A program made the position numbers and the translations under genes. Below, piece after piece: positions 741 to 64,000 of a stretch of DNA of 64,000 nt. The notes below the pieces were generated by a model that worked only from the letters and a program-made list of their open reading frames with translations, ran no database searches and was not told the DNA's origin. The DNA is from Candidatus Magasanikiibacteriota bacterium (GTDB taxonomy: Bacteria; Patescibacteriota; Patescibacteriia; Magasanikbacterales; GWA2-37-8): contig JBAYIZ010000006.1 of assembly GCA_041665405.1 (NCBI GenBank), positions 407 to 64,406 on the forward strand, given 5' to 3'. Each line of letters opens with the position of its first letter. Position 1 is the stretch's first letter.

Positions 741-752
741 CGTTGCGAACTG

Positions 753-8033: not shown

Positions 8034-8513
8034 TTAATAATGATACTGTCGTCCACCAGATATCATAAAGGCTCGGTAAATCTGTTCCCACAAAAACACT
8101 CTCATCATTTGGTGGGTAAAAGTAAAAGCAGAAAAAGATAATTTTAAATTGGCCAATTGCAAAATCGATTGATCTAATCCACGCGGTCCGCCAATAATAA
8201 AAATAATTTCGCTAATCCCTTCATTGGATAGGCCAGATAATTTTTTAGAAAAGTCCACAGACGAAAATTGCTTACCATGCTCGTCCAACACGATAACATA
8301 CGCGCCCTTAGTTTTTTCTAGGGCGTTTTTTATTTTCTCTGCCTCTTTTGTTTTTATAATATCAGACGAGGTTTTTTCATCAAAACTTTCTTCTTTCAAT
8401 TCCAAAATTTCTACTTTTGCAAAAGCCTGTAAGCGTTTTAAATATTCTTCCTCTGCTTCACGCCAAAAACTTTCTTTCAATTTTCCCAAACAAATTAATT
8501 TCAAATGCAACAT
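8034..8513 (-). CDS. rlmH: 23S rRNA (pseudouridine1915-N3)-methyltransferase RlmH (SPOUT)
   Basis: 159 aa. The N-terminus (KLICLGKLKE...) and C-terminus (FTHQMMRVFLWEQIYRA) are typical of RlmH. Confidence 0.85.
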   Translation of the reverse strand: MLHLKLICLGKLKESFWREAEEEYLKRLQAFAKVEILELKEESFDEKTSSDIIKTKEAEKIKNALEKTKGAYVIVLDEHGKQFSSVDFSKKLSGLSNEGISEIIFIIGGPRGLDQSILQLANLKLSFSAFTFTHQMMRVFLWEQIYRAFMISGGRQYHY

Positions 8514-8514
8514 A

Positions 8515-9525
8515 CTATTTCTTAACCAAGTTATTTATAAAACTCTTGCCAGATTCTTCCCAAGAAAATTGTAATGCTTTTTCGCGGCATTTTTCACGTG
8601 ATAAATTCAAACAAGCCATAGCTGCTGTCTTCAAATCATCGTCAATAAATCCGTCTACACCAGGAGTAATAATGTCGCGCGGCCCCATCACATTGTGAGC
8701 TGCCACTGGCACACCACAGGCCAAAGCTTCCAGTATCACCAAACCAAATGTTTCCGTTAAAGAAGGAAAAACAAAAACATCGCAAATGGATAATAAATTT
8801 ACCAAATCCTCACCTTTTTTATATCCAACAAATTTTACTCTGTCTCCATATTCTTTCTCCAGTTCGTGGCGTTGTGGGCCATCGCCTATAACAAGTTTGG
8901 TGCCTGGTAAATCACATTCCAAAAATTCTTTGATGTTTTTTTCAATCGCTACGCGTCCACAAAAAACAAATACCGGAGATGGATAAGAAGCCGTGTCTGT
9001 AACTAAATTGTCTCTGCGTTTAAAAAATTCTGCATCTACTCCCAAAGGGCATATCGTAATATTTTTGAAGCCACGTAACTCCAATTCGCTTTTTAAGCTT
9101 TGAGTACTCACCATTAATGATTCTGACACACTATGAAACCAACGCAAATAGGCGTAGGTGGTATCAAAAAGAAAGCCCGTTCTAATTTTTAAATATAATG
9201 GTACATTGGTGTGATAAGAAGTTGAAAATTTATATTTTTTATGTAGACAAACCAATCTGGCGGCCAGACCTAGTGTCCCCTCAGAAGTAATATGGATAAA
9301 ATCTGGTTTTTCTTCTTCAAGGATCTTCTCAATCTTTTTTTGCGCAAAAACCGCCAGCTTTACCTCTGGATAAAAAAATACTGGAATGCTATGAAACATG
9401 CCTGGATGTATCAGAACTACCTCAAAACCATTTTTTTTGAGAAGTTCGATAGTTCTTTCTAAGGAAACAATCACCCCACTAACCCATGGATGCCAACCAT
9501 CCGTAAAAATAACTATTTTTTTCAT
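8515..9525 (-). CDS. glycosyltransferase family 4 (GT-B, retaining)
   Basis: A C-terminal EX7E-type region is present (FVFPSLTETFGLVILEALACGVPV). Confidence 0.8.
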   Translation of the reverse strand: MKKIVIFTDGWHPWVSGVIVSLERTIELLKKNGFEVVLIHPGMFHSIPVFFYPEVKLAVFAQKKIEKILEEEKPDFIHITSEGTLGLAARLVCLHKKYKFSTSYHTNVPLYLKIRTGFLFDTTYAYLRWFHSVSESLMVSTQSLKSELELRGFKNITICPLGVDAEFFKRRDNLVTDTASYPSPVFVFCGRVAIEKNIKEFLECDLPGTKLVIGDGPQRHELEKEYGDRVKFVGYKKGEDLVNLLSICDVFVFPSLTETFGLVILEALACGVPVAAHNVMGPRDIITPGVDGFIDDDLKTAAMACLNLSREKCREKALQFSWEESGKSFINNLVKK

Positions 9526-9554
9526 ACCAGGTAATTATATATTACTTTGGGGTT

Positions 9555-10769
9555 TTAAAAATTTATAAATTCTTTAAACCTATCTTCAAAAATAGCTTGC
9601 CGTGCCTGACGCATAAGCTCCAACATAAAATGCACATTATGGATGGTAGCCAAACGCAAACCAGTAATTTCTTGTGCTACAAATAAATGGTGTAAATAAG
9701 CGCGAGAATAATTTTTGCAAGTTGAACAAGCGCAGTCTTTACTAATTGGAGAAAAATCTTTGATAAACGCGGAGTTTTTTATATTCAAACGACGTTTCGG
9801 GTCCTCGGCAGTCGTAACAAACAACATACCGTGTCGAGCCAAACGAGTTGGTGCTACACAATCAAACATATCCGCACCACCAGCTACCACTTTGAGCAAA
9901 TCCTCTGGATCCAAACCGACACCCATAGTGTATCGTGGCTTATCTTTTGGTAATAATGGAGTAATCCAATCCAAAATATTTTTGGTAGCTTCCATGTTGT
10001 AGCCAATGCTTTCACCGCCAATTGCGATACCATCAAAATCTAAACTGGCAATATATTTAGCCGATTCTTTGCGCAGATCTTCATGATTGGCACCCTGAAT
10101 AATACCAAATAAAAATTGTTTGTATTCTTTCGGCACTGTCATCCCCGACTTGATCGGGGATCTATCATCACTAGATTCCCGCTTCTGCGGGAATGACAAA
10201 CGCTTATGTTCGTCCACACATCTTTTTGCCCAGCGATGAGTGCGATCCATAGCTTCCTTTGTATATTTATAATCTGCATCATCAGGGGTACATTCATCAA
10301 AAGCCATAATAATATCCGCACCAATCTTGTGTTGGCACAAAGTAGCGGACTCTGGTGTAAAACGATGAGTAGAGCCGTCAATATGAGATTGAAATGTCAC
10401 GCCGTCTTCATCTATTTTTACCAATTTACCTTGATCTTTGGTGTCGCTTTTTTCTTTTTGCAATCCTAATGAAAAAACCTGAAAACCACCAGAATCAGTC
10501 AAAATCGCCCGGTCCCAATTCATAAATTTGTGCAAACCACCAGATTGAGCAACCAAATCTTCACCCGGTCTCAAATGCAAATGATAGTTATTGGCCAAGA
10601 TAATTTTTGGGTCCAAAATAGCTAGGTCGTTTTGATCTAGGGTTTTAACTGTGGCCTGTGTGCCAACTGGCATAAAGACCGGAGTTTCAATATCTCCATG
10701 GTCGGTATGCAAAATACCGGCTCTGGCACCAGTTTTTTTATCTTCGTGGATTAGTTCAAAAAATGACAT
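9555..10769 (-). CDS. tgt: tRNA-guanine transglycosylase (queuine tRNA-ribosyltransferase) carrying a 20-aa in-frame repeat-derived insert
   Basis: Tgt hallmarks are present: TPVFMPVGT, LTDSGGFQV, and the zinc site CxCxxC...H (CACSTCKNYSRAYLHH). Confidence 0.93.
   Translation of the reverse strand: MSFFELIHEDKKTGARAGILHTDHGDIETPVFMPVGTQATVKTLDQNDLAILDPKIILANNYHLHLRPGEDLVAQSGGLHKFMNWDRAILTDSGGFQVFSLGLQKEKSDTKDQGKLVKIDEDGVTFQSHIDGSTHRFTPESATLCQHKIGADIIMAFDECTPDDADYKYTKEAMDRTHRWAKRCVDEHKRLSFPQKRESSDDRSPIKSGMTVPKEYKQFLFGIIQGANHEDLRKESAKYIASLDFDGIAIGGESIGYNMEATKNILDWITPLLPKDKPRYTMGVGLDPEDLLKVVAGGADMFDCVAPTRLARHGMLFVTTAEDPKRRLNIKNSAFIKDFSPISKDCACSTCKNYSRAYLHHLFVAQEITGLRLATIHNVHFMLELMRQARQAIFEDRFKEFINF
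10138..10197. repeat. double-hairpin palindromic mini-element (ATTCCCG family) inside tgt
   Basis: Sequence GTCATCCCCGActtgATCGGGGAT...ATTCCCGCttctGCGGGAATGAC is exactly 60 nt. On the minus strand it is translated as SFPQKRESSDDRSPIKSGMT. Confidence 0.8.
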
Positions 10770-51683: not shown

Positions 51684-53282
51684 TTATTTTTTTATACTTC
51701 TCAACATTATTCTTTTAAAATCTTGCGCAATTTCATAACGCAAGCCTTTTCTATTTAAGTTAACCTTGTTTCTAAGAGTTTCTAAGTATGTTTTATGTTC
51801 TGAACTTGTTAAGTATTCTCGCATGATTTCATCCCTTAATTTTGCCCAATCCTCAGAGTTTTTAAGCCATTGTTTTTCTAGAGGGACACCTAATGTTTTG
51901 TACATTTTTGCTGGATCCATTACGCTATGCATAGTATCATGTTTTCTAAAAAGTTTTGGATTCTCTCGGGCGTTTTTTTCTTTTTCAAACATGTTACTAT
52001 ACATACCAAAATCGATAGTTCCAACGATAGGTGTCCAAATATTTATACGGTAGTTGGTTTGAGGATTTTTTTTCATAAATGTAAGCATGGTCTTCTTTAT
52101 TTCATCTTTTGTATATCGAAAATGTTCGGGTAACCCTAAGATTAGCAAGGTTCTCACCATGAGAAATTTTTTTGCAGAATTAATAAACTCTGTAGCCACT
52201 TCAAGACTATCGCCTTTTGCTAAATCTTTTCTATTGCCGATAACATCTTCTACACCAACGGCAATTTCAATACAGCCAGCTTCAGCCATTTCTTTAAATT
52301 TTCTTAAACCCTCAAACTGCTTGACGCTCATAAAAGCAACCCACCCCATCTTATTTTTATGTTGCTGATTGAAGTGTTTCATAAAATTTATAAAATCTTC
52401 AAAGTGTTTCGGGTTGGCATTTAGTAAGGCATCACGTACAAAAACAAAATCCTTACCTTGTTTATAAAGTTTTTTTATTTCATTTTTGGCTGTGTCAAGA
52501 CAAGACACATATCCACCATAAAAAGAATCACTAGTGCAGAAAGTGCATTTATGAATACATCCGGCGCTAGTAGCTGTCGAACCGGCATTTTTGAAGTGTT
52601 TGTCTAATTCTAAAAAAGGCATTTTATTTATTTGAGAGCCATCGGTAGAAGCCGCTACAGGTATCAATATCTCAAGAGCATTGTTTTCTGTTAGCCGAGG
52701 AAAATTTTTACCAGTTTTTTTAGTGTTTTCAACAATACATAAATTTGTGTTTGTATCCTTTGTTGTATACGCAATTGAGCCTATTTTTTTCAAAGGAACC
52801 CCTAACGATAGAGCCAACATTGGCAATTCTCCTTGTCCGGTACAACAAATATCTATCCCAGTAATTTCTGGGTGTTGTAAAATCCATTTATAATCAAGCG
52901 CAAAATGTTCAGCCCCTCCGATTACTGTTTTTTGAGGATACTTGTTTTTTATTTTACGACACAACTCAAAGGATTCATTTATACTAGTAGACTGACTACT
53001 AATGCCAATAATTTCGGATTGTTGAATAAGATTTTCCATTGCGGACGTTTTTTGGTCTTGAAGATATGCTATGTCCACCGATATGCCAAATTTTTTTAAG
53101 TATCCAGCTATTCTTTTGATGCCGAGATTTTCTAATCTTAAATGATATTCGTCGGCTTCATATTTGGATTCGGTTATGTTGCCGTCAATAAGTAGAACCC
53201 TTTTTCTGGGTAGTTTTTTGTTGAAAGCCATTTTTTGCAGAGCATTCAATGAAATAATTTGTGTTGTTGTCGAAGTTTCCAT
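51684..53282 (-). CDS. B12-binding-domain radical SAM enzyme (class B rSAM)
   Basis: N-terminal Rossmann-like B12-binding region, then CIHKCTFC (CX3CX2C). 532 aa. Confidence 0.75.
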   Translation of the reverse strand: METSTTTQIISLNALQKMAFNKKLPRKRVLLIDGNITESKYEADEYHLRLENLGIKRIAGYLKKFGISVDIAYLQDQKTSAMENLIQQSEIIGISSQSTSINESFELCRKIKNKYPQKTVIGGAEHFALDYKWILQHPEITGIDICCTGQGELPMLALSLGVPLKKIGSIAYTTKDTNTNLCIVENTKKTGKNFPRLTENNALEILIPVAASTDGSQINKMPFLELDKHFKNAGSTATSAGCIHKCTFCTSDSFYGGYVSCLDTAKNEIKKLYKQGKDFVFVRDALLNANPKHFEDFINFMKHFNQQHKNKMGWVAFMSVKQFEGLRKFKEMAEAGCIEIAVGVEDVIGNRKDLAKGDSLEVATEFINSAKKFLMVRTLLILGLPEHFRYTKDEIKKTMLTFMKKNPQTNYRINIWTPIVGTIDFGMYSNMFEKEKNARENPKLFRKHDTMHSVMDPAKMYKTLGVPLEKQWLKNSEDWAKLRDEIMREYLTSSEHKTYLETLRNKVNLNRKGLRYEIAQDFKRIMLRSIKK

Positions 53283-53288
53283 AGTATT

Positions 53289-53978
53289 TTATTTTTTACA
53301 CACAATCAAAGCGGTGTTGGTGCGCAAGAATTTGAGTTCGACTTTGAATCCGACATTCTTTAACCATTTAATCTGATCTTCAATTGGAGCAAGATCGTTT
53401 AAGAACATGTGGTGGTATGCCCACTCGGTCAAAGTTTTTTTGTCTGTCGCATTTTCCACCAAGTGATGAAAGTGCAAAGCGTTATTAAGCGCGGCGGTAT
53501 GTTTGTCTTGGTAAGTCACCAAATCTCCAAAAATAAATACGCCGCCTGATTTAAGCAAAGAATATATTTTTTTGAATAATTTCTTTTTACCGGCTGTGTT
53601 TTGGTGATGAATGCCGATTACTGAAACTATTAAATCATATTTAATATCAAATTTAATTTTGGAGTAATCACCATAAACATATTTTACATTTTTGCCAAGT
53701 TTTTTCTTGGCACTGTTTATCATTTGTCTGGAGAAATCCACCACCGTTAGTTTGCTATTTGGTAGAACATCTTTTATTAATTTGCTAGTAAGACCAGTAC
53801 CAACTCCAAGATCCAACATTTTAATATTTTTGTTCACAAAAGCTTTTTTTGCGTAATTCAAAATATTATAATGAATTTCTAAGTGGTGCGGAATGGAATT
53901 TACAATATCTCGGTCATATTTGTTTAATGAATAATGGTCGTAATTCAACTGAGACGGTTTTACATTGGTTGTTTTCAT
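53289..53978 (-). CDS. class I SAM-dependent methyltransferase
   Basis: Motif I MLDLGVGTGLTS, followed by post-I/II acidic residues. Confidence 0.8.
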   Translation of the reverse strand: MKTTNVKPSQLNYDHYSLNKYDRDIVNSIPHHLEIHYNILNYAKKAFVNKNIKMLDLGVGTGLTSKLIKDVLPNSKLTVVDFSRQMINSAKKKLGKNVKYVYGDYSKIKFDIKYDLIVSVIGIHHQNTAGKKKLFKKIYSLLKSGGVFIFGDLVTYQDKHTAALNNALHFHHLVENATDKKTLTEWAYHHMFLNDLAPIEDQIKWLKNVGFKVELKFLRTNTALIVCKK

Positions 53979-53980
53979 AT

Positions 53981-55336
53981 TTATGAGGTTATTTTATTTA
54001 TAGCGACGATCAACCGTTCGATATCATTGTTTGTATTGCATAGAGCGATAGAGGCGCGAATTAGGGCTGGAATGGTTTTGACGTTGCCATGTTTAACTGA
54101 ATCGACAATGGCATTATCGTTCTTTATTCCTAAAAGTTTTCGTATTACGTGATAGGTACAGAAACTTCCCGCTCTTACACCGATTCCGTATTCGCTATTA
54201 AGTCTTTCGGCCACTTCGTTGGAATCCATATTTTTTATACGAAACGGTATAACGGTTCCTAATTTTTCTTTTTTAACAAACATTTCTACGTTGGGGTTTT
54301 TCTTTAGTGCATCAAACAGTTTGTTTGTTAAAGTTGATTCATACTGACAAATTTTATCTATGCCAATTTTTTTGAGTTGCTCAAGTGCAATAGCCATGGT
54401 AACCGCACCGATAGCATTAGGCGTGCCTGGATCGTGTGCGAGTTGATTTCTGTATCGCAAGAACTCGCCAGTTTTTGTTATGTAAGGAAGATTACCGCCA
54501 CCAATTTGATAAGGTAAAAAAGAATCAAGAAAGTTTTTTGGTCCGATTAAGAAACCTCCGCCATATGGGGCGTAAAACTTATGACCAGAAGCGGCCAAAA
54601 AATCTATTCCCATTTCTTTCATATCCAATTTGTGATGTTGTAAAAATTGGCAGGCGTCAACCAGAAAATATGCGCCATATCGGTGAGCAAGCATTCCAAT
54701 TTTTTTAATATCAGGACAATATCCCGTAACATTTGAAGAAGCAGTAAGAACTAATACTTTGATATGATTTTTTTTGAGTAAATTTTCTATTATGTCTAAA
54801 TCAAATTCAAAATTTTCATTAACATCATATTGTAATACTTGGCGACGTCCTAAGTATTGAATTTGTTCGTTGACGCTATCCATTTCTCCAAAAGTATTTT
54901 GTTGTCCACCCAAAGCTTTGATACCTTCAGATTTTATCCAAGGCAACCAAGATGAACTATGCTCAATAGACGACACAGCGATTTTTCCTTTTAGGAAAGA
55001 AAAAAAGTGGGCGGCTGTATTGATTGCCCCAGTAGTATTATTGGTAAACAAAACATATGAATCAGACGGAGCATTAACAAAGGATTTGATTATCTCGCGA
55101 CTGTTTTCATATACATCGGTGGAGATTTTTGATTTTTTCCCCGCGCCACGATGTACCGATCCGTAGCTAGTTATGTATTTTGATAGTCCGCGTTCGACTG
55201 TTTTAAGGGGAGGAGTGGTGGCAGCATTGTCCAAGTTCACATAATCAACTTTTCCTAAAATTGAGGTTGTGACTGCGTATTTTAGGATTTTGGTTGAAAA
55301 CAGTTTGGTAGGGTCAATTTGGCTTGGTTTGTTCAT
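53981..55336 (-). CDS. class V aminotransferase / cysteine desulfurase-like PLP enzyme
   Basis: The PLP-lysine context ASGHKFYAPYGGGFLIG is present. The fold-type I pattern runs throughout. Confidence 0.8.
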   Translation of the reverse strand: MNKPSQIDPTKLFSTKILKYAVTTSILGKVDYVNLDNAATTPPLKTVERGLSKYITSYGSVHRGAGKKSKISTDVYENSREIIKSFVNAPSDSYVLFTNNTTGAINTAAHFFSFLKGKIAVSSIEHSSSWLPWIKSEGIKALGGQQNTFGEMDSVNEQIQYLGRRQVLQYDVNENFEFDLDIIENLLKKNHIKVLVLTASSNVTGYCPDIKKIGMLAHRYGAYFLVDACQFLQHHKLDMKEMGIDFLAASGHKFYAPYGGGFLIGPKNFLDSFLPYQIGGGNLPYITKTGEFLRYRNQLAHDPGTPNAIGAVTMAIALEQLKKIGIDKICQYESTLTNKLFDALKKNPNVEMFVKKEKLGTVIPFRIKNMDSNEVAERLNSEYGIGVRAGSFCTYHVIRKLLGIKNDNAIVDSVKHGNVKTIPALIRASIALCNTNNDIERLIVAINKITS

Positions 55337-55485: not shown

Positions 55486-56220
55486 ATGGAAAATTTGAAT
55501 ATTCTAAAAGAACTCGGTTTAGACGACCAAGAAGCGAGTGTATATATGGCTTTATTAAAATTGGGTGGATCTCAAGCCAGTGTTGTAGCCAAAGATGTTG
55601 GCATTAAACGGACAACAGTTTACCCTGTTTTGCAGGCGTTGGCGGCCAAAGGGATGGTAAATGTTTATTTTCGAAAAAACCGCCATTTCTATTATGCTCA
55701 AAAACCAAATAGAGTGGTGGGTATTTTCAAAAAGAAAATAGAATCATTTGAAAGTATTATTCCAATGTTGGAACTAGTTGAAAAAAAACAAGTGATGGCC
55801 ACGGGTTTGCGCTTTATTGAAACAGTTGAAGAATTAAAACAATTTTATAACGGAATTTTAGATGAGTATAAAGGGAAGCAATATCTGGCAATTGGAAATA
55901 CGGCGGCATGGGAGGGATTGGAACCAGAATTTTTTGTAAACTTTCGTAGACAAAGAGCAGAAAATAAAATTAAAACGAAATTACTATTAACATTTAATTC
56001 TGTCGAAATAAATCCAATAGAAACCTCGCTATTAAGAGAGTGGAAATATCTTCCTGAAAAATATAAATTTCAAAGTACGATAGATATTTTTAATGATAAA
56101 ATTTTGATTGTGAGTCCGGAGCTAAGTTCGTTGGCGGTGGTGATCGCGGTGCCGGCGATGACGGATATTTTTAAATCTGTTTTTGAGATGTTGTGGCAGA
56201 TGTTGCCGGAGGTGAAATAA
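55486..56220 (+). CDS. TrmB-family winged-HTH transcriptional regulator (paralog 1, short form)
   Basis: N-terminus LKELGLDDQEASVYMALLKLGGSQASVVAKDVGIKRTTVYPVLQALAAKGMV. A TTGACA-17-TAAAAT promoter lies at about 55413-55441. Confidence 0.8.
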   Translation: MENLNILKELGLDDQEASVYMALLKLGGSQASVVAKDVGIKRTTVYPVLQALAAKGMVNVYFRKNRHFYYAQKPNRVVGIFKKKIESFESIIPMLELVEKKQVMATGLRFIETVEELKQFYNGILDEYKGKQYLAIGNTAAWEGLEPEFFVNFRRQRAENKIKTKLLLTFNSVEINPIETSLLREWKYLPEKYKFQSTIDIFNDKILIVSPELSSLAVVIAVPAMTDIFKSVFEMLWQMLPEVK

Positions 56221-56226
56221 TTAAAA

Positions 56227-56261
56227 CAAAAAACCGATTGCAATATGCAGTCGGTTTTTTT
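56227..56261 (+). terminator. conserved terminator shared by the TrmB-like modules (copy 1)
   Basis: AAAAAACCGATTGCaataTGCAGTCGGTTTTTTT. Near-identical copies are at 61129 and 63042. Confidence 0.8.
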
Positions 56262-56269
56262 AGTTTATT

Positions 56270-57910
56270 TTACTCAATAAAAAGATTTTCCGTAGAATAA
56301 TTATTTTTTATTAATTTATCATTTATTAAAACTTTTATAATTTCATCAACCACTGAATTAAAATCATCTGGAATTGTATCAAAGAATTCTATCTTTTTTA
56401 ATGATTCGGTTAATTCGCGCTCAGGTATCCCAACATGAGATGAGGCAATATTTATTACCTCTTTTTCTTGTTTTTTCCATATCGCGACGGATTGATTCCA
56501 CACCTTCTTAATTTTTTCAATCTCTTTGGTTTTTTGTTGTAGTAATTTATTGTTTACAATCAATACATCATATAGGATAGGATAATCGTTTGTGGTTTTT
56601 AAAATATTTATATTTGAAAGTTCAAGCGCTTTTTCAAGCCATGGCTCCCAAATAATTCCAGCTTCAATATTACCCGCGATAATTCCAGCTCCAATTTCAG
56701 AGCATTGCATATCTTTAATTTTTACATCTTTAGAGGTCATCCCTTCTTTTTGGAGAATATATGAGAGAAAAAATTCCGCCACCGATCCTTTTTCGAGTCC
56801 TATGGTTTTACCTTTTAATTCAATTACGGATTTTATATTTGACTGTGCAACTAACGCATCGCCACCGACGGAGCGATTCAATACCTTTACTATTCTAAGA
56901 TCTGTTATTTTTGAGTGTAATTCGATGGCTTTATCTAGGGTAACATTTATTGCGTCTAGCTTTCCTTGCTCCCACAGCTCAACTTTTTTCTTGTTATCTT
57001 CAAAATTGATTTGTTCCACATCAAGCGACTCGTCGATAAACAGACCGCTATCTTTTGCATAGTAAAGGGGGGTGTTTCCAGACCAAATATATAATCCCAT
57101 TTTGAAAACATCAGTATCAGTAACAATCCCTTCTTCCAAGCTCGCCTTGATTGATTCTGAACGAATAATGTAACTGATGAACTTTTTTAGTTTTATAAAA
57201 TCTTCATGGAATCTGATTTCAGGTTTTCGTGGTCGTTTGATATTTACTTTTACTACCTGTTTGACAGTTCCTGGATTTAGTCCTAAGACAATAATTCTAT
57301 CCGCTAAGTATATTGCTTCATCAATGTCATGGGTGACTAAAATCATTGTTTTTTGTTCTTCTTCCCATAGTCTTGCTAAAAATTCTTGCATTTGAGATCT
57401 CGTTTGTACATCAAGAGCGCCAAAAGGTTCGTCAAATGCAATTAGGTCAGTCTGTTGTGCTATTGCTCTGGCAATAGCGATTCTTTGTTGCATGCCTCCT
57501 GAAAGCTTGTTGGGGAAATAATCTTTGACCTTGTAAAGGCCAACTCGTTTAAGTAATTTGTTAGTTTCAGTACGTACTTCAGTCTCAGACATATTTTTAC
57601 CGTAAAATCCAATGGCAATATTTTCGAAAACATTCAACCAAGGAAAATTAGAGTATTGCTGAGAAACTAATGCAATTCTATTATTTTCTAAATATTTGGA
57701 GCTGTCTAAACCATTGATTTTTATATTTCCTTCGAATACAGTGTCCAAACCTGTTACGCATTTTAAAATAGTGCTTTTACCTGAGCCGCTTGGGCCAACT
57801 ATACACACTATCTCCCCCTTTTTTATATCAAAAGAGATATCATTTATTGCGATAAAAGATTTATTTTCGCGATCATAATAATGTTTAGTTAGTTTGTGGA
57901 CTTCAATCAT
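56270..57910 (-). CDS. ABC transporter ATPase (NitT/TauT-type) fused to a C-terminal periplasmic-binding-protein-like domain
   Basis: An internal ATG at 57910 gives MIEVHKLTKHY... Walker A GPSGSGKST, signature LSGGMQQR, Walker B LIAFDEP. About 300 further aa resemble an NMT1/SsuA-like fold. Confidence 0.8.
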   Translation of the reverse strand: MIEVHKLTKHYYDRENKSFIAINDISFDIKKGEIVCIVGPSGSGKSTILKCVTGLDTVFEGNIKINGLDSSKYLENNRIALVSQQYSNFPWLNVFENIAIGFYGKNMSETEVRTETNKLLKRVGLYKVKDYFPNKLSGGMQQRIAIARAIAQQTDLIAFDEPFGALDVQTRSQMQEFLARLWEEEQKTMILVTHDIDEAIYLADRIIVLGLNPGTVKQVVKVNIKRPRKPEIRFHEDFIKLKKFISYIIRSESIKASLEEGIVTDTDVFKMGLYIWSGNTPLYYAKDSGLFIDESLDVEQINFEDNKKKVELWEQGKLDAINVTLDKAIELHSKITDLRIVKVLNRSVGGDALVAQSNIKSVIELKGKTIGLEKGSVAEFFLSYILQKEGMTSKDVKIKDMQCSEIGAGIIAGNIEAGIIWEPWLEKALELSNINILKTTNDYPILYDVLIVNNKLLQQKTKEIEKIKKVWNQSVAIWKKQEKEVINIASSHVGIPERELTESLKKIEFFDTIPDDFNSVVDEIIKVLINDKLIKNNYSTENLFIE

Positions 57911-57914
57911 AATT

Positions 57915-58664
57915 TTAAATTTTGTATTTGAAGATGTGTGGGTATAGTTTTTTGAAAATATAATCTGAGAAAAAACCAATTATTCCAATGACAACGATTC
58001 CGACATATAAATCCGGTATATTAGAAAACCTTTGTGCTTCCTTGATCATGTGACCAATACCAGAATTTGCGGCAACCAACTCTGCAATTACGAGATAAGT
58101 CCAACACCACCCCAATGTTATTCGGGAATTATTAAATAATTGCGGAGCGATACTCGATAGTTTTATCTTTAGCACTTTATATTTACTAAAATTTAAGGTA
58201 TGAGATAAATCTAGATATTCTTTAGGAACATTATTTAAATCATCTATTACTAATAAGATAAGTTGAAAAAAAGTGCCAATGAATAAAAGTGATATTTTAG
58301 CACCTTCTCCTATACCAAAAAATAAAATTGTTAATGGGATTAAGGCTGGCACGGGTAAATATCTAATAAAGTCTATATATGGCGAAAGTAAATCGTGTAG
58401 TTTTTTCCACGAACTCATCAATAGCGCGAGCGAAAGAGCAATAACAAAAGCTAACAAGAACGCTACTAAAACTCGAAAAATAGAAATACCAATATCTAAC
58501 ACAAAGGATTTTTCTAAAAACAATTTTTGTGTCGCTGTTAAAAAATCCTGTATTGTCGGAAAGAATATGGGGTTTATAAGTTTAATCCATGAACCCAAAA
58601 TCCACAGTGATAATAAAATCACTATGGAAATTGGGAAGATATAATTTCCTCTAAACAGTTTCAT
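57915..58664 (-). CDS. ABC transporter permease (NitT/TauT family)
   Basis: 6-TM BPD_transp_1-type protein with an EAA-like loop. It lies between the SBP and ATPase genes. Confidence 0.85.
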   Translation of the reverse strand: MKLFRGNYIFPISIVILLSLWILGSWIKLINPIFFPTIQDFLTATQKLFLEKSFVLDIGISIFRVLVAFLLAFVIALSLALLMSSWKKLHDLLSPYIDFIRYLPVPALIPLTILFFGIGEGAKISLLFIGTFFQLILLVIDDLNNVPKEYLDLSHTLNFSKYKVLKIKLSSIAPQLFNNSRITLGWCWTYLVIAELVAANSGIGHMIKEAQRFSNIPDLYVGIVVIGIIGFFSDYIFKKLYPHIFKYKI

Positions 58665-58676
58665 GGAGATATTAAT

Positions 58677-59678
58677 TTACTTATAACTTGTAATTGTCTT
58701 GTCTGATAATTTATCGCTTGATTTTACCCTTACTCCTGCCGAGTTGTTGCTTTCTAAAATATTACCCACAAGATCAAAAGTTAAATAAGCATTGTTGACT
58801 TGTTTCTTGTCAAACAATTTTTGATTATCTTCTAGCGTCAGCCAACTAACTCCTGATTTGATATCATTCATTTCAGCCTTATCTACACCAAAGGCGTCAG
58901 CCATAATTTGCATTGATTCATCTGGATTCTTTTGCCAATAATCGACAGCTGAAAACCAACCATCCGAAATCTTTTTAAGAACTTCTTGGTCGTTTTTAAC
59001 TAAATTTTCTGAGGCAAATAATAAATCGACAATTAAACCTGGTGTATCTGCACTTGAAACCAATATCTTTGCTCCGGCTCTTTTATCTGCGCTAATAGAT
59101 AAATAAGGTTCATAAGTAGCAGCAACATCTACCTGGCTCGCAACAAATGCATTTCCTGCGTCTGCTGAAGGAAGGTCTTTGAAGCTTACATCTGCCAAGC
59201 TTAATCCTTCTTTATTTAACAAATATTGTAAGATGAAATAAGGAGGAAAACCAGGTTCAGCGGCGACTGTTTTACCTTTTAAGTCTTTCAGTTCTGAAAT
59301 GTTACTAGAAACAACCACGCCATCGCCACCATGTGATTCGTCTATAGCAAGGAATCCAACCCCTGGAGGTTCATTACCTTCTACAGCTTGAAAAATATCA
59401 TACGTTGCAGCGTACATGTCGATCTGTCCGCTGTTCATAGCGGCCCTAAGATCACCGATTGATTCAATTCGAACCAAATTTACATCTACATCATTAAAAA
59501 AATTTTTTTCTTTTGCTAAGTATAGCGGTGCATATCCAGGAAATGTAACCATCCCGATAGTAACTGATTTTTTAGATTGTAGATTTTTTGTGTCATTCTT
59601 GTTACTTTGTGTAAAAACAATTACTAACACAACCACGACGAATAGGGCAACGATTGTCCTGATGATTTTCTTATTCAT
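58677..59678 (-). CDS. ABC transporter substrate-binding protein (NMT1/THI5/SsuA-like)
   Basis: N-terminal anchor or signal sequence, type 2 PBP pattern, first gene of the operon. Confidence 0.8.
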   Translation of the reverse strand: MNKKIIRTIVALFVVVVLVIVFTQSNKNDTKNLQSKKSVTIGMVTFPGYAPLYLAKEKNFFNDVDVNLVRIESIGDLRAAMNSGQIDMYAATYDIFQAVEGNEPPGVGFLAIDESHGGDGVVVSSNISELKDLKGKTVAAEPGFPPYFILQYLLNKEGLSLADVSFKDLPSADAGNAFVASQVDVAATYEPYLSISADKRAGAKILVSSADTPGLIVDLLFASENLVKNDQEVLKKISDGWFSAVDYWQKNPDESMQIMADAFGVDKAEMNDIKSGVSWLTLEDNQKLFDKKQVNNAYLTFDLVGNILESNNSAGVRVKSSDKLSDKTITSYK

Positions 59679-59809
59679 ACTTTTTATGTTAATTAAGGAA
59701 TTATTTGATTATGTGTTTATTGTAGCATTTTTTTTGGCAGTTGAAAAACAGCGGTAGACGTTAACATTGTTAACAGAACATAATATCACAAAACTAAGGT
59801 TTTGTCAAT

Positions 59810-59909
59810 GGTGTCACTTGACTTATGGTGACACTTATGATATGATAGTATTGCCTCTGTAAAGAGCAAAAACAACACAGTGTGTCACTGGTATGGTGAC
59901 AAATGTGAC
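59810..59909. promoter_or_regulatory. GTGTCAC/GTGACA(C) operator cluster overlapping the promoter of TrmB-like paralog 2
   Basis: GGTGTCACttgacttatGGTGACAC (IR, 59810-59833) overlaps TTGACT-17-TATGAT. A second set is GTGTCACtggtatgGTGACAaatGTGACA (59882-59909). Confidence 0.55.
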
Positions 59910-59948
59910 AAAAACCATGTTATTCTATAATTTTTATCCACACCATTT

Positions 59949-61118
59949 ATGCTGATAAAAGACCTCCAATCTATCGGTTTTACCAAGAATCTATCTGAGG
60001 TTTATTTGTCTTTAGCCCAATTGGGAGGCCAGGCCAAAGCTGGGGAAATCATCAAAAAGACAGGTTTACACCGAAATATCGTTTATATTTGTTTAGACAA
60101 ACTAATAGAAAAGCAATTATTAACTAAAACCGAAGAACGCGGTGTTACTATTTATAAAACACTAGATCCAGCCCGACTAATGAATGAAATTCGAGAAAAA
60201 GAACAATTAACAACAAATATTATTGAAGAAATTGAAGCATTAAAAAAGCATCCAGACACTCAAGAAATAATTGTCCACGAAGGTTTGGAAGGTTTTAGAA
60301 ATTTCAATCTCTATACTTTGAAAAAAATCGAAGAAGGTGGCACATTGCAAGTGCTTGGTTCCATTGGAGATAAATGGTTTGAATACATGGGTGAAGAAAA
60401 GTACAAAGAATATATAAAAATACAAAACAAGAAAAAAATTAAGTGGGAGATGATTACTTATTTTGATTCAAAACGCGACAAACAATTTATTAATGACTAT
60501 CCAGAATTATGCGAGGTAAAATTATTACCGCAGACATATGATAATCCGGCCAGCATTTATATTTTTGGAGATACAATTTCAATAAATATTTTTACCGAAC
60601 CATTTTCGGTGATTGAAATAAAAAATCGCGCGGTGGCGGATGTATATAGAAATTATTTTAGTTTGTTGTGGAACCAAGAAGTGTTTACCTATCGCGGTTG
60701 GGATGCGATTGATAAAATTTTGTGTGCGAATTTGGAAGATGGATTTACTTATGATGTTTTTGGGGCAACATATGGTGTGGGTACAAAAGAGGAACAAGAT
60801 CGCGTGTTGGAATTTTTTATGGAGAACCACAGAAAGACCGCACACTTTAAACCAAATAGACGATTGATATTTTTTGAACAAGATCGTGAGCAGGCGGCTA
60901 AAGAAGTTTCTCCGTTGGATGCAGACACTCGTAAAAATGTTCGTTTGCGTTTTCTGTCAGACAAATATTTTTCGCCGATGGAGACACATTTGTTTAAAGA
61001 TAAAGTAATTTTAATTTTTTCTTTTGGCGAACCAATCGCGACAGTTTATACCAATCCAAAAATAATTGAAGTTTACAAAAAACAATTTGAGTTGTGGTGG
61101 GGGATGTCGGTGGAATAA
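59949..61118 (+). CDS. TrmB-like wHTH regulator with a large C-terminal domain (paralog 2)
   Basis: N-terminus LQSIGFTKNLSEVYLSLAQLGGQAKAGEIIKKTGLHRNIVYICLDKLIEKQLL. It shares GLHRN(I/L)VY and (L/F)WNQE with paralog 3. Confidence 0.75.
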   Translation: MLIKDLQSIGFTKNLSEVYLSLAQLGGQAKAGEIIKKTGLHRNIVYICLDKLIEKQLLTKTEERGVTIYKTLDPARLMNEIREKEQLTTNIIEEIEALKKHPDTQEIIVHEGLEGFRNFNLYTLKKIEEGGTLQVLGSIGDKWFEYMGEEKYKEYIKIQNKKKIKWEMITYFDSKRDKQFINDYPELCEVKLLPQTYDNPASIYIFGDTISINIFTEPFSVIEIKNRAVADVYRNYFSLLWNQEVFTYRGWDAIDKILCANLEDGFTYDVFGATYGVGTKEEQDRVLEFFMENHRKTAHFKPNRRLIFFEQDREQAAKEVSPLDADTRKNVRLRFLSDKYFSPMETHLFKDKVILIFSFGEPIATVYTNPKIIEVYKKQFELWWGMSVE

Positions 61119-61128: not shown

Positions 61129-61162
61129 CAAAAAACCGATTGCAGATTGCAGTCGGTTTTTT
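61129..61162 (+). terminator. conserved TrmB-module terminator (copy 2)
   Basis: AAAAAACCGATTGCagatTGCAGTCGGTTTTTTG. Confidence 0.8.
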
Positions 61163-61308: not shown

Positions 61309-61707
61309 CTACGCCTGTTCGCGACAGGGCAGGCATTCGTAGCCCACCCAAAGGCCGTTGGCAAAGGTGAAGTCGAAGTCCCAGCGGTTGTCACCACCGT
61401 ACCAGCAGAGGCTGGCAGTGTATTTGAATCCATTGGGGGCGAGAAGAGTGGTGCCAGTGAGCACGATCTTCTTCTTACGCATTTTCATCGGAATCTGGTC
61501 TTGGTGGTCAAGCAGTTGCTGGCCGTCACGCACTCCAAGGACGCCATTCCGACGACGTGCGCGTTCGCGCAATTCGGAGCCCTTGATGCATTCCTCGCCA
61601 CGCTTGAGGCACGACTCGATCCGGAGCTTGTTGATGTGAAGATCTGCAATTGGATCACAGTCTTCCACAACCTTAAACTCCACCCTGTTCCAAACGAATG
61701 TATTCAC
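61309..61707 (-). CDS. 132-aa cytoplasmic protein of unknown function encoded in G+C-rich islet 5
   Basis: The GTG start is preceded by AAGGAGG at 6 nt. The frame is open across the whole G+C-rich segment. No signal peptide and no family recognised. Confidence 0.6.
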   Translation of the reverse strand: MNTFVWNRVEFKVVEDCDPIADLHINKLRIESCLKRGEECIKGSELRERARRRNGVLGVRDGQQLLDHQDQIPMKMRKKKIVLTGTTLLAPNGFKYTASLCWYGGDNRWDFDFTFANGLWVGYECLPCREQA

Positions 61708-61775
61708 CTTTCACCTCCTTGCGGTTCTGACAGGTTGGTTGCTCTGAAGAGAGCAATTGTTGTTAACAACTCAAT

Positions 61776-61918: not shown

Positions 61919-63031
61919 ATGTTAGAACAAAAACTAGAAAAACTTGGTTTTGGAAAAAACGAAGTGAAAGTATATCTAGCTCTTTTTGATTTGGGTAAAT
62001 GTAAAGCCAAACAAATCATTGATAACACAGGTCTTCATCGTAATCTTGTCTACACGGCACTTGATGATTTGATTGGAAAGAAATTAATTTCAAAAGTCGA
62101 GAGTAATGGAATTTTTTTATTTTGGGTTAATAGCCCTGAACTTTTGAACGAAATAATAGAAGAAAAAGCTATAACGGCAAAAGAAGTGATTGAACAATTA
62201 AAAAAGAAAAGCGCCAGTCAACCTCGTGAGATATTAATTTATGAAGGTGAAGAGGGTGTGAAGAAAAGTCGCACCAAAGTTTTAACATATGGAAAAGGAG
62301 ATACATTTTATATGTTAGGAACAAAAGCGAGTTTCTCGCCTTCGATGGAAAAATTTTCAAAGGAGTTTGATTCGCTAAGAATTAAAAAGGGAATTTATTC
62401 AAAAATTTTAGTCGAACATGATGTGAATAAAGATGAACTTAAACATCTTAATAAAATGCCACTTAGTGAAGCCAAGCACCTTCCTCTTGATTTGGAAATG
62501 CCTATTTGGTTTTCAGTTATTCAAGATTATTTGGAAATTGGCATCCCAGGCGTTGATCCACTGATTTTTTCGATAAAAAATAAAGCGGTGGCTGGGGCAA
62601 TAAAAAAATTTATAGATTTTTTCTGGAATCAAGAATCCGAAGTTGTTACAGGCGCAAAGGCTTTACAAGAGATTATGTTGGAATCCATTGATTATGGTGA
62701 GTTGAAAGGTATCGGCGCAAAAGGCAATTTTTTTGAAAATTATCCGGGATTTTTTAATGATATAAAAAAGCGAGCAGTAATGAAACAAGGACTGGTCTGG
62801 AGAAACATTGTTGATCCAAGTATGAAAGGGCATGAGATTACAAAATTTTTGTGGACTAAAACAAAATATAATTTATCCGATACAAAAAATCCCAATGTTG
62901 TTTGGTTGTATGGCCCGAAAGCTGTGATTATAAATTGGGCGGATAAAGAACCTGTGATGTTTGTTTCTACAAATAAGGCGCTAGTGCAAAGTTATAATGA
63001 TTATTTTGAGGAGATGTGGGGTAAAGATTAA
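61919..63031 (+). CDS. TrmB-like wHTH regulator with a large C-terminal domain (paralog 3)
   Basis: N-terminus MLEQKLEKLGFGKNEVKVYLALFDLGKCKAKQIIDNTGLHRNLVYTALDDLIGKKLI. Confidence 0.75.
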   Translation: MLEQKLEKLGFGKNEVKVYLALFDLGKCKAKQIIDNTGLHRNLVYTALDDLIGKKLISKVESNGIFLFWVNSPELLNEIIEEKAITAKEVIEQLKKKSASQPREILIYEGEEGVKKSRTKVLTYGKGDTFYMLGTKASFSPSMEKFSKEFDSLRIKKGIYSKILVEHDVNKDELKHLNKMPLSEAKHLPLDLEMPIWFSVIQDYLEIGIPGVDPLIFSIKNKAVAGAIKKFIDFFWNQESEVVTGAKALQEIMLESIDYGELKGIGAKGNFFENYPGFFNDIKKRAVMKQGLVWRNIVDPSMKGHEITKFLWTKTKYNLSDTKNPNVVWLYGPKAVIINWADKEPVMFVSTNKALVQSYNDYFEEMWGKD

Positions 63032-63041
63032 CACTAAGAAC

Positions 63042-63075
63042 AAAAAACCGATTGCGATATGCAGTCGGTTTTTTA
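63042..63075 (+). terminator. conserved TrmB-module terminator (copy 3)
   Basis: AAAAAACCGATTGCgataTGCAGTCGGTTTTTTA. Confidence 0.8.
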
Positions 63076-63168
63076 ATTACTTCTTGAACCAAAATGATTT
63101 AGTTCGAAAAGTAGCTGCGCGTCTTTTTGACCGGGACGCGCAACCGGGTGAGAGGGTGGAACCGGACG

Positions 63169-63660
63169 TCACAGGAATGCGATTCCCAGTGACGGCTGGA
63201 ACAGCAACGAGTAATCGCCGCCATCCAGGGTCTTCGCCAGTCCAAATGCCATGGACAGCGACAGACCGTTTCCGATTCCGTAGGCCAGGCCGGTGCCCAG
63301 ACCAACCAAGTCGGAAGACGGCTTGCCGCCGTAACCGACATTGCGCTGGTAGAGCACGCTGGCCTGGGTGGACCAACGATCAGTCAGTCCCAGCGACACA
63401 CCTGCAGAGAGGCGTGGGCTGGGCTTGCAACTGTCGTTGGGGGTGGCCAGCCCGATTCCGCCCGCGATGGACACCTTGTTGGAGACCTTCTCCGACAGCG
63501 AGATGTCGTAGCGGGTGGAGGCCGAGGCGGGGGTGAGCCCGTCCTTCAGGAGGACGACGTAGCCCTCCCGGATGTTGAAGACCGGGGTCAGGGCGCTGGC
63601 CGAAGCCGAGACACCGCTCAGAACCACGGCCACCAGGACGATCAGGGTGGAGATCTTCAT
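63169..63660 (-). CDS. secreted small beta-barrel-like (OMP-like) protein encoded in G+C-rich islet 6
   Basis: GAGGTG lies 4 nt before the ATG. Signal peptide is MKISTLIVLVAVVLSGVSASASA|L. The protein has Gly-rich alternating strands and a C-terminal ...QPSLGIAFL. Confidence 0.6.
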   Translation of the reverse strand: MKISTLIVLVAVVLSGVSASASALTPVFNIREGYVVLLKDGLTPASASTRYDISLSEKVSNKVSIAGGIGLATPNDSCKPSPRLSAGVSLGLTDRWSTQASVLYQRNVGYGGKPSSDLVGLGTGLAYGIGNGLSLSMAFGLAKTLDGGDYSLLFQPSLGIAFL

Positions 63661-63736
63661 GGGACACCTCTGCAGACCAGAAGGCCTGCCATCTGCATTA
63701 GTCAGTCAGGTTGCATTTGCGAACCCATACTGCTTT

Positions 63737-63786
63737 TGCCAGACGAAATAGTTCACAATAGATCTTATGGACTATTTCGTCTGGCA
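63737..63786 (-). promoter_or_regulatory. 16-bp perfect hairpin in the 5' leader of the islet 6 gene
   Basis: TGCCAGACGAAATAGT-N18-ACTATTTCGTCTGGCA lies between the promoter (63829-57) and the ATG (63660). No T-run follows it. Confidence 0.5.
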
Positions 63787-63828
63787 GTTGTAAAGAACAG
63801 TGTTACGGGTTATTGATCGTAACAAGCC

Positions 63829-63857
63829 AGTATATCATATATTTGTATACTTGTCAA
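63829..63857 (-). promoter_or_regulatory. sigma70-type promoter reading into G+C-rich islet 6
   Basis: Minus strand reads TTGACA-17 nt-TATACT. Confidence 0.6.
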
Positions 63858-63920
63858 GGGTTTTTTGGCTAAAACTAGCTAAAAACAAGCATAAATAAGG
63901 ATGACAAAAAAATCATAAAC

Positions 63921-63949
63921 TTGACAAATTTGGCTAATCATAGTATAAT
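63921..63949 (+). promoter_or_regulatory. promoter of TrmB-like paralog 4
   Basis: TTGACA-17 nt-TATAAT, followed by the shared TCATAAATAATATGAtAAT-ATG leader. Confidence 0.6.
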
Positions 63950-63975
63950 AATATTGTCATAAATAATATGATAAT

Positions 63976-64000
63976 ATGTTAGAAAACGAGCTTTTAAAAC
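63976..64000 (+). CDS. start of a fourth TrmB-like paralog (truncated by the window end)
   Basis: ATG TTA GAA AAC GAG CTT TTA AAA gives MLENELLK, compared with MLEQKLEK in paralog 3. The upstream region is homologous. Confidence 0.5.

Follow-up and report, generated by a model that had tools for sequence, protein, structure and literature searches.

The locus described here raises two questions: why the ATPase of an ABC importer should continue for some 300 residues beyond a complete nucleotide-binding domain (NBD), and whether the importer is controlled from a cluster of inverted half-sites lying between it and a divergent TrmB-like regulator gene. The locus is part of a 64,000-nucleotide (nt) stretch of contig JBAYIZ010000006.1 of a Candidatus Magasanikiibacteriota bacterium (hereafter the window; positions are counted from its first base). 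Our overall explanation, to which we assign a probability of roughly 0.6, is that the ATPase carries a fused sensor domain, and that the half-sites belong to an autoregulatory cassette of the regulator (TrmB-like paralog 2), which captured the importer in this lineage only.

The importer is encoded on the minus strand by three genes (59678→56270) separated by gaps of 4-12 bp. The first encodes a 333-aa substrate-binding protein (SBP; 58677-59678) of the NMT1/SsuA family (Pfam NMT1, E 6.6e-17; NMT1_2, 2.1e-15), which has an N-terminal transmembrane (TM) anchor at residues 5-23 (Kyte-Doolittle 2.97) without a lipobox Cys; its best PDB matches are SsuA-type proteins, and it scores 116.6 bits against the NCBIfam SsuA_fam model, under the cut-off of 163.5. 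The second encodes a 249-aa permease (57915-58664; Pfam BPD_transp_1; TauC/SsuC/NrtB-like) which, as the sole permease of the operon, is expected to form a homodimer. The third encodes the ATPase (56270-57910), of 546 aa when read from the ATG at 57910; the 569-aa version with a TTG start in the list of open reading frames (ORFs) is an upstream extension of this form. The gene order given by the initial annotation (SBP, permease, 546-aa ATPase) agrees with both the ORFs and Pfam, and the combination of an NMT1/SsuA-type SBP, a BPD_transp_1 permease, and an ABC ATPase fits a NitT/TauT importer. The ATPase is identical to a database protein (P0001) named only 'ATP-binding cassette domain-containing protein [Candidatus Magasanikbacteria bacterium]', which places the window in a member of the candidate phyla radiation (CPR; Patescibacteria), and no second NBD gene besides it was detectable across the whole window.

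The ATPase comprises three consecutive parts, all on the minus strand. Residues 1-235 (57206-57910) form an NBD of NitT/TauT type (Pfam ABC_tran at residues 23-163, E 1.3e-31), with Walker A (GPSGSGKST), LSGGMQQR, Walker B (LIAFDEP), and H-loop (THD) motifs in the translation; the NCBIfam models ntrCD, TauB, and SsuB match, each under its equivalog cut-off. Residues 236-262 (57125-57205; FIKLKKFISYIIRSESIKASLEE) form a conserved amphipathic helix and linker with the family motif Y[IL]IRSE[ST][IL]K[AS], collinear with the post-NBD helix of both NrtC and NrtD. Residues 263-546 (56273-57124) form a binding-protein fold of SsuA/TauA type, here called the C-terminal regulatory domain (CRD). Pfam NMT1 matches residues 280-477 (E 5.5e-20; 72.6 bits vs. 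a gathering cut-off of 20.5), and the C-terminal 291 residues are 28% identical to the SBP of the operon over 236 residues (E 2e-30). The THI5-like enzymes that share the NMT1 domain were considered and dismissed, as THI5 and THI13 score well under SsuA and TauA. There is no hydrophobic or TM segment or signal peptide anywhere in the ATPase, including between the domains (maximum Kyte-Doolittle 1.1), and the second domain is therefore cytoplasmic. An AlphaFold model built with 50 homologues (pLDDT 91.9, pTM 0.88) consists of the NBD, a long helix (236-257), and a two-lobed alpha/beta domain. Its top two PDB matches in Foldseek are full-length CmpC (top, E 1.8e-33) and NrtC, and these two alone among the top matches are aligned across both domains. 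The SsuA/NMT1-like fold that had been proposed from the residue pattern of the ~300-residue extension is thereby recovered by Pfam, by identity to the SBP, and by AlphaFold and Foldseek; domain prediction could have failed to find a binding-protein fold in the extension, and did find one.

The combination of an NBD with a binding-protein-like CRD is already known from NrtC and CmpC, which serve as ATPase subunits in the nitrate and bicarbonate importers of cyanobacteria (PMC10945777; PMC13287603), and control by solute sensing is, for a transporter family akin to this one, an established mechanism, not new biology. In a PDB sequence search, the best matches of the ATPase were NrtC (8WM7, 8W9M), CmpC (9U9Z, 9UA0, 9UA1), CmpD, and NrtD. 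The E-value to NrtC was 6e-53 with the single sequence and 2e-95 over profile positions 2-477 with a family profile, the profile alignment taking in the helix and the greater part of the second domain; that to CmpC with the family profile was 1.9e-87 (positions 4-491). NrtC (NrtABCD; 8WM7, 8WM8, 8W9M) shares the NitT/TauT NBD, the helix, and a cytoplasmic CRD ~30% identical to its own SBP. It differs in length (682 vs. 546 aa) and in its nitrate-binding CRD, which is of NrtA type (NMT1_2) with an extra helical subdomain, whereas the window CRD is of SsuA/TauA type; furthermore, NrtC recruits PII and has as its partner NrtD, which lacks a CRD, so that each transporter carries only one, whereas the window operon has a single ATPase gene. 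In NrtBCD the CRD binds nitrate and is chiefly the docking site for PII, which locks the transporter (PMC10945777; PMC13287603). CmpC (CmpABCD/BCT1; 9U9Z, 9UA0, 9UA1) has the same fusion and is the precedent for a ligand-released NBD lock: in CmpBCD, the CRD clamps both NBDs shut, and binding of intracellular nitrate to the CRD releases the clamp (PMC13287603). The CmpC CRD senses nitrate, not the transported bicarbonate, and is present as a single copy in asymmetric contact with both NBDs; the predicted domain orientation of the window ATPase differs from it (root-mean-square deviation 11 Å over the full alignment), and the organisms and substrate family are different.

By contrast, E. coli SsuA and TauA each score 62 bits with the CRD-only profile, vs. 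33 for the NrtC CRD, and SsuA (2X26) and TauA (6SSY) are the closest solved structures to both CRD and SBP. All three parts of SsuABC and TauABC belong to the same transporter family as the window importer; SsuB and TauB are short ATPases and are not known to carry a CRD. The operon proteins all fall far under the cut-offs of the NCBIfam models for TauA, SsuA, TauC, SsuC, TauB, and SsuB, so the operon is not placed within SsuABC or TauABC. Nitrate is bound in CmpC by W319, H408, G452, and K481 (PMC13287603). In the profile alignment to NrtC, read by eye, the columns of H408, G452, and K481 hold Glu, Trp, and Tyr/Asp in the CPR family. The window CRD is thus not an NrtA/CmpA-subfamily domain with the nitrate-binding Trp, His, Gly, and Lys, and neither the CRD ligand nor the substrate is nitrate.

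The authors of the NrtC and CmpC studies stress that their CRD is single and asymmetric (PMC10945777; PMC13287603). The window operon lacks a CRD-less NrtD/CmpD gene that would supply a heterodimer partner; with a single ATPase gene, an ATPase homodimer and therefore two CRDs per transporter are expected. In this respect it resembles MetNI and ModBC, which are symmetric, their two identical ATPases each bearing a regulatory domain, and are subject to feedback by internal solute (PMC13287603). The regulatory domains of MetNI and ModBC are unrelated in sequence and fold to the ~285-residue two-lobed binding-protein fold of the window CRD. They are small, being the ACT-like C2 domain in MetN and the TOBE domain in ModC. 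The NBD is no closer to NrtC than to NrtD or CmpD (~280 bits each), and the CRD groups with SsuA-type SBPs, whereas the NrtC CRD groups with NrtA. Because the CRD subfamilies differ, the NBD has no special affinity to NrtC, and the post-NBD helix is also found in NrtD, two independent fusions, one in CPR and one in cyanobacteria, are probably the most economical account.

The fusion is not peculiar to the window. Around 70 clusters (90% identity) match the ATPase over its full length, down to 29% identity, and their named sources are Magasanik-, Uhr-, and Pacebacteria and 'Patescibacteria group'. In a genome scan with one genome per species, queried with a six-sequence CRD alignment, 18 of the 80 retained loci were fused, and those with phylum-level names were all Patescibacteria (Parcubacteria, Uhrbacteria, Magasanikbacteria, Paceibacterota, Falkowbacteria, Peribacteria, and Saccharibacteria). 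The other 62 are free-standing binding proteins of ~330 aa from many phyla, those scanned being NCBIfam SsuA_fam. In a search of 1.84 billion representatives (50% identity), the domain lay at ~255-545 of a protein of at least 500 aa in ~16 of the best 150. The order SBP-permease-fused ATPase is constant in every related locus with flanks recovered, and no second ATPase gene was found in the operon of any related locus with intact flanks. CRDs have a median identity of 43% to one another, and the fusion is old within CPR. One fused homologue (L005/P0012) has in-frame UGA at conserved Gly positions, which points to the presence of the fusion in a lineage that reads UGA as Gly as well; the contig (Ga0187366_1299643) has in-frame UGA in genes at 5156-5908 and 8001-9656, where the database translation gives Trp, and probably derives from an organism with genetic code 25 (Gracilibacteria/SR1-type), and its fused-ATPase operon has a divergent TrmB-like gene. 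A Magasanikbacteria locus (L024) has two NitT/TauT importers (19-2200 and 3658-6882) flanking one TrmB-like gene, one with a plain ATPase of ~235 aa and the other with a fused sensor domain, a natural comparison pair of regulated and unregulated pumps. P0073, P0078, P0087, and P0088, from Planctomycetes and Myxococcales and named 'nitrate/nitrite transport ATP-binding protein', were set aside as sensor fusions since they are tandem double NBDs (555-685 aa). Literature searches centred on NrtC and on the CRD found no description of a CPR SsuA-type fusion.

Conservation within the CRD bears on its function. Relative to four relatives with 86-92% identical proteins (L001, L004, L014, L015), dN/dS is 0.10-0.13 for the CRD (263-546), 0.06-0.09 for the NBD (1-235), 0.06-0.07 for the SBP, and 0.01-0.03 for the linker helix (236-262), which is the most constrained segment; purifying selection acts on the CRD. 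When 16 CRDs, their 16 cognate SBPs, and 12 free-standing relatives are aligned jointly, all three groups have pocket positions in common: W/F276, G278, S347-x-G349-G350-D351, W/Y421-E422-P423, and D448. Position 276 is Trp in CRDs, Phe in SBPs, and Trp in the outgroup, and position 421 is Trp or Tyr; E373 is kept in CRDs and SBPs and variable in the outgroup, and W424 is invariant in CRDs and the outgroup and variable in SBPs. When the CRD is aligned on E. coli TauA, D351, W421, and D448 correspond to Glu106, Trp176, and Asp205 (TauA numbering as chain index + 21, which holds for S60, G61, G79, E106, T132, and W176 and fails for N55, D84, and S109, only consistent positions being used). The sulfonate-binding Gln30 of TauA is apparently replaced by W276 in the CRD and F46 in the SBP, a tentative correspondence extrapolated past the aligned block. 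Glu106 is essential for binding the amino group of taurine, and Asp205 makes TauA amine-specific (PMC6906117); the acidic residues aligned with these two therefore hint that the solute may carry an amine. Taken together, the pocket appears to be intact in the cytoplasmic CRD and to resemble that of the external SBP.

Three other roles or origins for the extension have to be set against a sensing function. An artefactual origin of the 546-aa ORF, in which misassembly or a frameshift had joined an ATPase gene to a second SBP gene, has only the unusual length in its favour and is ruled out by recurrence: the uninterrupted architecture is found in ~70 clusters and 18 independent genomes and in the genome reading UGA as Gly, its linker motif is specific to the family, and the second domain bears no signal peptide, leaving this a negligible prospect. 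The CRD might instead be a structural or docking module rather than a small-molecule sensor, either a partner platform, as the NrtC CRD is for PII, or a dimerization clamp. In the nitrate importer, the CRD is indeed mainly a PII hub (PMC10945777; PMC13287603), and the linker helix is more constrained than the CRD; yet cleft residues of TauA/SsuA type vary little or not at all among CRDs with an overall identity of only ~43%, which a pure scaffold would not need, and neither a PII gene nor another candidate partner was seen beside any operon. We therefore regard a docking role as unlikely. A conserved pocket similar to that of the external SBP, on a domain that a rigid conserved helix tethers immediately beneath the translocation pathway, would also suit a cytoplasmic acceptor that takes solute from the permease and hands it on or holds it without regulating the ATPase. 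Such an acceptor has no precedent, both solved homologous architectures being regulatory (PMC10945777; PMC13287603); one site per subunit cannot serve as a sink, and no enzyme gene is conserved downstream of the operon, all of which makes this quite improbable. Because the pocket signature of the SBP is kept and the domain is under purifying selection, the best reading is that the CRD would sense a ligand and gate activity. The sensing and gating part of the original proposal is thus supported by the precedent of the NrtC and CmpC CRDs and, indirectly, by the conserved pocket and selection, but the trans-inhibition it envisaged is one of two precedented modes, ligand binding in CmpC activating the pump (PMC13287603).

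The second question concerns the region between the SBP gene and paralog 2. Five half-sites had been reported there, and all are found, as GTGTCAC at 59811-17 and 59882-88, GTGACAC at 59828-34, and GTGACA at 59896-901 and 59905-910. The cluster is non-random: GTGWCAC occurs 8 times in the window vs. 3.4 expected, a count reached in 2 of 100 shuffles, its five copies outside the cluster all lying within long ORFs, and five GTGACA/TGTCAC hexamers fall within 100 bp, where the largest cluster in 100 first-order Markov simulations of the window had three. The half-sites form two candidate operators. O1 (59812-59833; TGTCAC-N10-GTGACA) lies over the -35 box and spacer of the predicted paralog 2 promoter (59818-59846, plus strand; TTGACT-17-TATGAT with TG extension; 10/12), which the promoter scan recovers where an overlap with an inverted pair had been noted, and O2 (59883-59901; TGTCAC-N7-GTGACA) lies in the predicted 5' untranslated region of paralog 2 at ~+30 to +48, with the extra GTGACA half-site (59905-59910) beside it; the two operators lie 69.5 bp apart, centre to centre. 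Two promoter candidates face the importer on the minus strand. The distal one, P1 (59780-59808; TTGACA-17-TATTAT, 11/12, TG), has its -35 box 3 bp from O1, and both -35 boxes would probably be covered by a protein bound there. The proximal one, P2 (59719-59747; TTTTCA-17-TACAAT, TG), lies inside ~70 nt common to importer relatives and has no half-site within about 65 bp; at its position TGnTAnAAT is found in L001, L014, and the window, and weaker forms in L004 and L015. The 8-bp palindrome TGTTAACA occurs in the 64 kb only at 59768 (within 59760-59775) and at 61761-61768, both intergenic beside TrmB-like genes; it was discarded as a TrmB-linked signal because this count equals the chance expectation. 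Separately, GTTAAC is under-represented in the window (9 vs. 19.5 expected; at least 9 in 100 of 100 shuffles), which may reflect restriction-site avoidance.

Paralog 2 (59949-61118, plus strand) is a 389-aa protein with a winged helix-turn-helix (PF01978, E 2.6e-8; 34 bits vs. a cut-off of 25.6), a long helix, and two PLD-like modules. In its model (pLDDT 86.7), a helix at residues 74-100 follows the wing; the closest fold is TrmBL2 (5bpd), then TrmB (3qph). The C-terminal part is PLD-like and resembles only that subdomain, as in TrmBL2, and the sugar-binding effector domain PF11495 had no Pfam match at E ≤ 0.01; TrmBL2 is without a sugar site (PMC4158304). The family (P0121-P0230) falls into length classes of ~240, 389, 530, and 670 aa, corresponding to a DNA-binding head plus one to four PLD-like modules of ~140 aa. 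Paralog 2 shares with archaeal TrmB-family regulators (TrmBL1/Tgr, TrmBL2) the PF01978 winged helix-turn-helix and a conserved recognition-helix Tyr. Its half-site TGTCAC differs by one base from that of the TrmBL1/Tgr TGM motif, TATCAC-N5-GTGATA (PMC4158304), so that the likeness to archaeal operators that had been pointed out for this cluster holds at 5 of 6 bases (PMC4158304); the spacers are N10 and N7 vs. N5 (PMC4158304). It is unlike these archaeal regulators in its bacterial (CPR) host, in the repetition of the PLD-like module one to four times in the family, and in having no PF11495 match. Paralog 2 is the likely binder of O1 and O2.

Comparison of regulator homologues shows to which gene the operators belong. 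Eight other lineages have O1, the -10 box, and O2 at identical spacing in the DNA upstream of their paralog-2 homologues (L010 and L011 were found via the O1 pattern, and the others via protein similarity, with 60% identity in L006/L007, 63% in L008, 54% in L094, 51% in L095, 43% in L096, and 41% in L097). The layout is TTGTCAA, 3 nt, TGTCAC-TTGA(C/T)T-N4-GTGACA, 7 nt, TATGAT, ~36 nt, and TGTCA(C/T)-N7-GTGACA, and successive half-site starts are 16, 55, and 13 bp apart, identically in the window, L006, and L008. O1 is invariant in five lineages, kept in L094/L095, and present in a variant form in L096/L097, and the -10 box TATGAT is invariant in the five-lineage alignment. In L096/L097, the most distant, both operators change to TGTCAT/ATGACA, and Gly replaces Ile/Leu/Val at the position following the invariant HRNIVY of the recognition helix; this coherent change of operator and recognition helix is a hint of co-evolution, phylogenetically confounded. 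Equivalents of P1 (TTGAC(A/T)-17-TAnnnT) can be read in L006, L008, L010, and L011, and P1 is thus read as that half of the paralog-2 cassette's conserved bidirectional control region which faces away from the regulator. As judged from these alignments, the two-operator layout is classic for a repressor that controls its own gene; members of the TrmB family are known or proposed to autoregulate (PMC4158304), and autoregulation by paralog 2 is strongly supported by the conserved footprint.

The divergent partner of the regulator is, in 8 of the 9 lineages, a protein of ~200 aa with a signal peptide, whose gene is GC-rich within AT-rich host genomes, with 34-65% identity across the eight and no Pfam family (L010 9217-9804 (+); L011 1687-2349 (+); L007 1046-1654 (-); L008 3978-4607 (-); L094 2143-2745 (-); L095 2121-2744 (-); L096 106-618 (-); L097 2190-2774 (-)). 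For L008 and L096 the gene caller picked the opposite strand. No homologue of this partner was found in the window, the ORF at 63169-63660 being an unconvincing candidate (E 0.19), and no SsuA-type importer adjoins the paralog-2 homologue in any of the eight other lineages. L094 has a polar-amino-acid-type ABC importer (SBP_bac_3, permease, and ATPase; 1-1902 (-)) 238 bp 3' of the partner gene on the same strand; an association of cassette and importer may hence not be unique to the window, the L094 importer being of another family.

The importer side gives the complementary result. In the relatives with 86-92% identical importers, only the last ~70 nt before the SBP start codon are homologous and GTGWCAC is absent upstream of the importer, on which grounds the motif was dropped as the importer's conserved operator. 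The usual divergent neighbour of the importer family is a distinct TrmB-like protein of ~245 aa, 22-26% identical to paralog 2, whose gene lies directly upstream in L004/L016, L005, L020, L021, L023, L024, L026, L029, and L030, and farther away in L025, L027, and L031; members of one orthologous subgroup are 45-77% identical, while the importers have diverged to ~46%. Control regions with this ~245-aa gene have three copies of TTGTCAAT/ATTGACAA, not GTGWCAC (L004 5989-6232; L020 3248-3546; L024 3121-3552; L026 3342-3543). Two of the copies are extended -35 boxes of divergent promoters, and the motif is a candidate operator for the ~245-aa subfamily.

Whether paralog 2 might nonetheless be a dedicated importer regulator, with the five half-sites as the importer's operator cluster, depends on the weight given to position. 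The genes are divergent, a divergent TrmB-like gene usually accompanies importers of the family, the -35 box of a strong importer-facing promoter (P1, 11/12) is 3 bp away from O1, and no terminator-like site is predicted from P1 to the SBP start codon. Against this stand the 86-92% identical importers without GTGWCAC and with only ~70 nt in common upstream, the different subfamily (22-26% identity) of the usual divergent regulator, the O1/O2 cassette in eight lineages without an adjoining SsuA-type importer, and the position of the importer-conserved P2 candidate outside the operator region; we consider a dedicated role doubtful. O2 has also to be weighed as an RNA hairpin in the regulator leader, an attenuator or stability element, rather than a protein operator. 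It can form a stem of 6-7 bp in which the TGTCAT variants of L010, L094, and L095 would retain a G-U pair, and a weak terminator-like hairpin is flagged at 59878-59890 on the opposite strand. However, the same half-site recurs at O1, upstream of the predicted start site, and it is the sequence that is conserved, with no compensatory double changes; the paralog 2 leader folds no better than shuffles (z = -0.16), and a riboswitch scan of 59500-60100 against Rfam gave no match at E ≤ 1. An RNA element is accordingly very improbable. The cluster is therefore better read as belonging first to the regulator, as an autoregulatory cassette, than as the control element of the importer family. The initial annotation had the TrmB-like protein autoregulating and controlling the importer: the first part is supported, by a footprint in eight other lineages, but the cluster is not the importer's conserved control element, given the close importers without the motif, their usual ~245-aa neighbour, and the ~200-aa secreted partner in 8 of 9 cassette lineages. 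Since P1 is intact and no terminator is predicted by the scan between P1 and the SBP start codon, P1 transcripts would enter the importer operon. Co-regulation of the importer through P1 is accordingly plausible, but would be an accident of this lineage, and we hold it to be rather unlikely. A search for literature on TrmB-regulated ABC transporters in Patescibacteria returned nothing.

The mechanism we propose for the locus combines the two parts. A NitT/TauT-family, SsuA-like importer would consist of an externally anchored SBP, a homodimeric permease, and a homodimeric ATPase, in which the CRD would bind, on the cytoplasmic side, the solute being imported or a closely related metabolite. 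The ligand-bound CRD would alter its contact with the NBD and thereby set ATPase and transport activity, either through inhibition at high internal solute or through CmpC-like relief of auto-inhibition. Through O1 and O2, paralog 2 most likely acts as a repressor of its own promoter; a rearrangement would have put the importer operon behind P1, the divergent promoter of the cassette, replacing the usual regulator, and in this genome paralog 2 may co-regulate one of two importer promoters. A more specific version can be put forward tentatively, as something short of an even chance: that CPR bacteria arrived independently at the cyanobacterial solution through duplication and fusion of an SsuA/TauA-type protein, that two cytoplasmic sensors per pump gauge the solute brought in and throttle import, and that the operon was captured by the bidirectional promoter of the TrmBL2-like cassette in place of its usual TrmB-like partner.

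Several observations weigh against the proposed explanation. The NrtC CRD is mainly a PII docking platform, not a solute sensor (PMC13287603), and ligand sensing is therefore not guaranteed by the architecture. CRD and SBP pockets differ systematically (N279 vs. Y, Y284 vs. L, K374 vs. P, A352 vs. G), and the CRD ligand could therefore be a molecule other than the SBP ligand, as in CmpC with its bicarbonate import and nitrate sensing; N279, Y284, A352, and K374 could otherwise tune affinity or shift specificity. The mean score of CRDs is 94 bits against their own SBPs and 131 bits against SsuA-family proteins that stand alone in other phyla, a comparison that led us to reject the CRD as a recent copy of the cognate SBP but that is biased, because the free-standing outgroup was picked by CRD similarity. 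Among the genome records with the fusion, some have the label 'uncultured Gammaproteobacteria' and a few others bear generic labels, which we take, unverified, as placeholders. On the regulatory side, promoters and start sites are consensus-scan predictions only, and the spacings of O1 and O2 differ (N10 vs. N7), which is unusual for one symmetric dimer.

Other features of the window complete the setting. A bidirectional terminator hairpin (56226-56262), read from the sequence, lies between the ATPase gene and the convergent TrmB paralog 1, and a near-identical second copy (61129-61162) lies 3' of paralog 2; both have AAAAAACCGATTGCA(A/G)AT(A/T)TGCAGTCGGTTTTTT between A and T runs, hence their bidirectionality. 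Three TrmB-like genes fall within 8 kb, including 59949-61118 and 61919-63031. Paralog 1 (55486-56220, plus strand) is divergent from an operon (51684-55336, minus strand) whose translations read as class-V aminotransferase/desulfurase-like, S-adenosylmethionine (SAM)-dependent methyltransferase-like, and B12-binding radical-SAM-like proteins; its orthologue in L004 is 58% identical and stands in another gene context. The window has 34-40% GC except for GC-rich ORFs at 61309-61707 (-) and 63169-63660 (-) and a GC-rich segment at 63000-64000. The ORF at 63169-63660 encodes a 163-aa, beta-rich and Gly-rich protein with a signal peptide and a C-terminal Phe-Leu.

Fused binding-protein-like regulation of ABC importers has been worked out only in two cyanobacterial pumps (2024, 2026), and the authors of the NrtC and CmpC studies suggested that the principle may be general (PMC10945777; PMC13287603). 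The locus shows the same principle in another phylum and another SBP subfamily, probably in a symmetric two-sensor form and probably through a separate fusion. The operator analysis defines a conserved CPR cassette in which a TrmBL2-like regulator, with two operators whose spacing is fixed, is paired with a divergently encoded secreted protein. The CRD (residues 263-546) is small, soluble, and easily expressed, and its ligand would reveal both the cargo and the gating of a widespread CPR importer. If the more specific version put forward above is true, the importer would be a self-contained homeostat, fitting genomes with little regulatory capacity.

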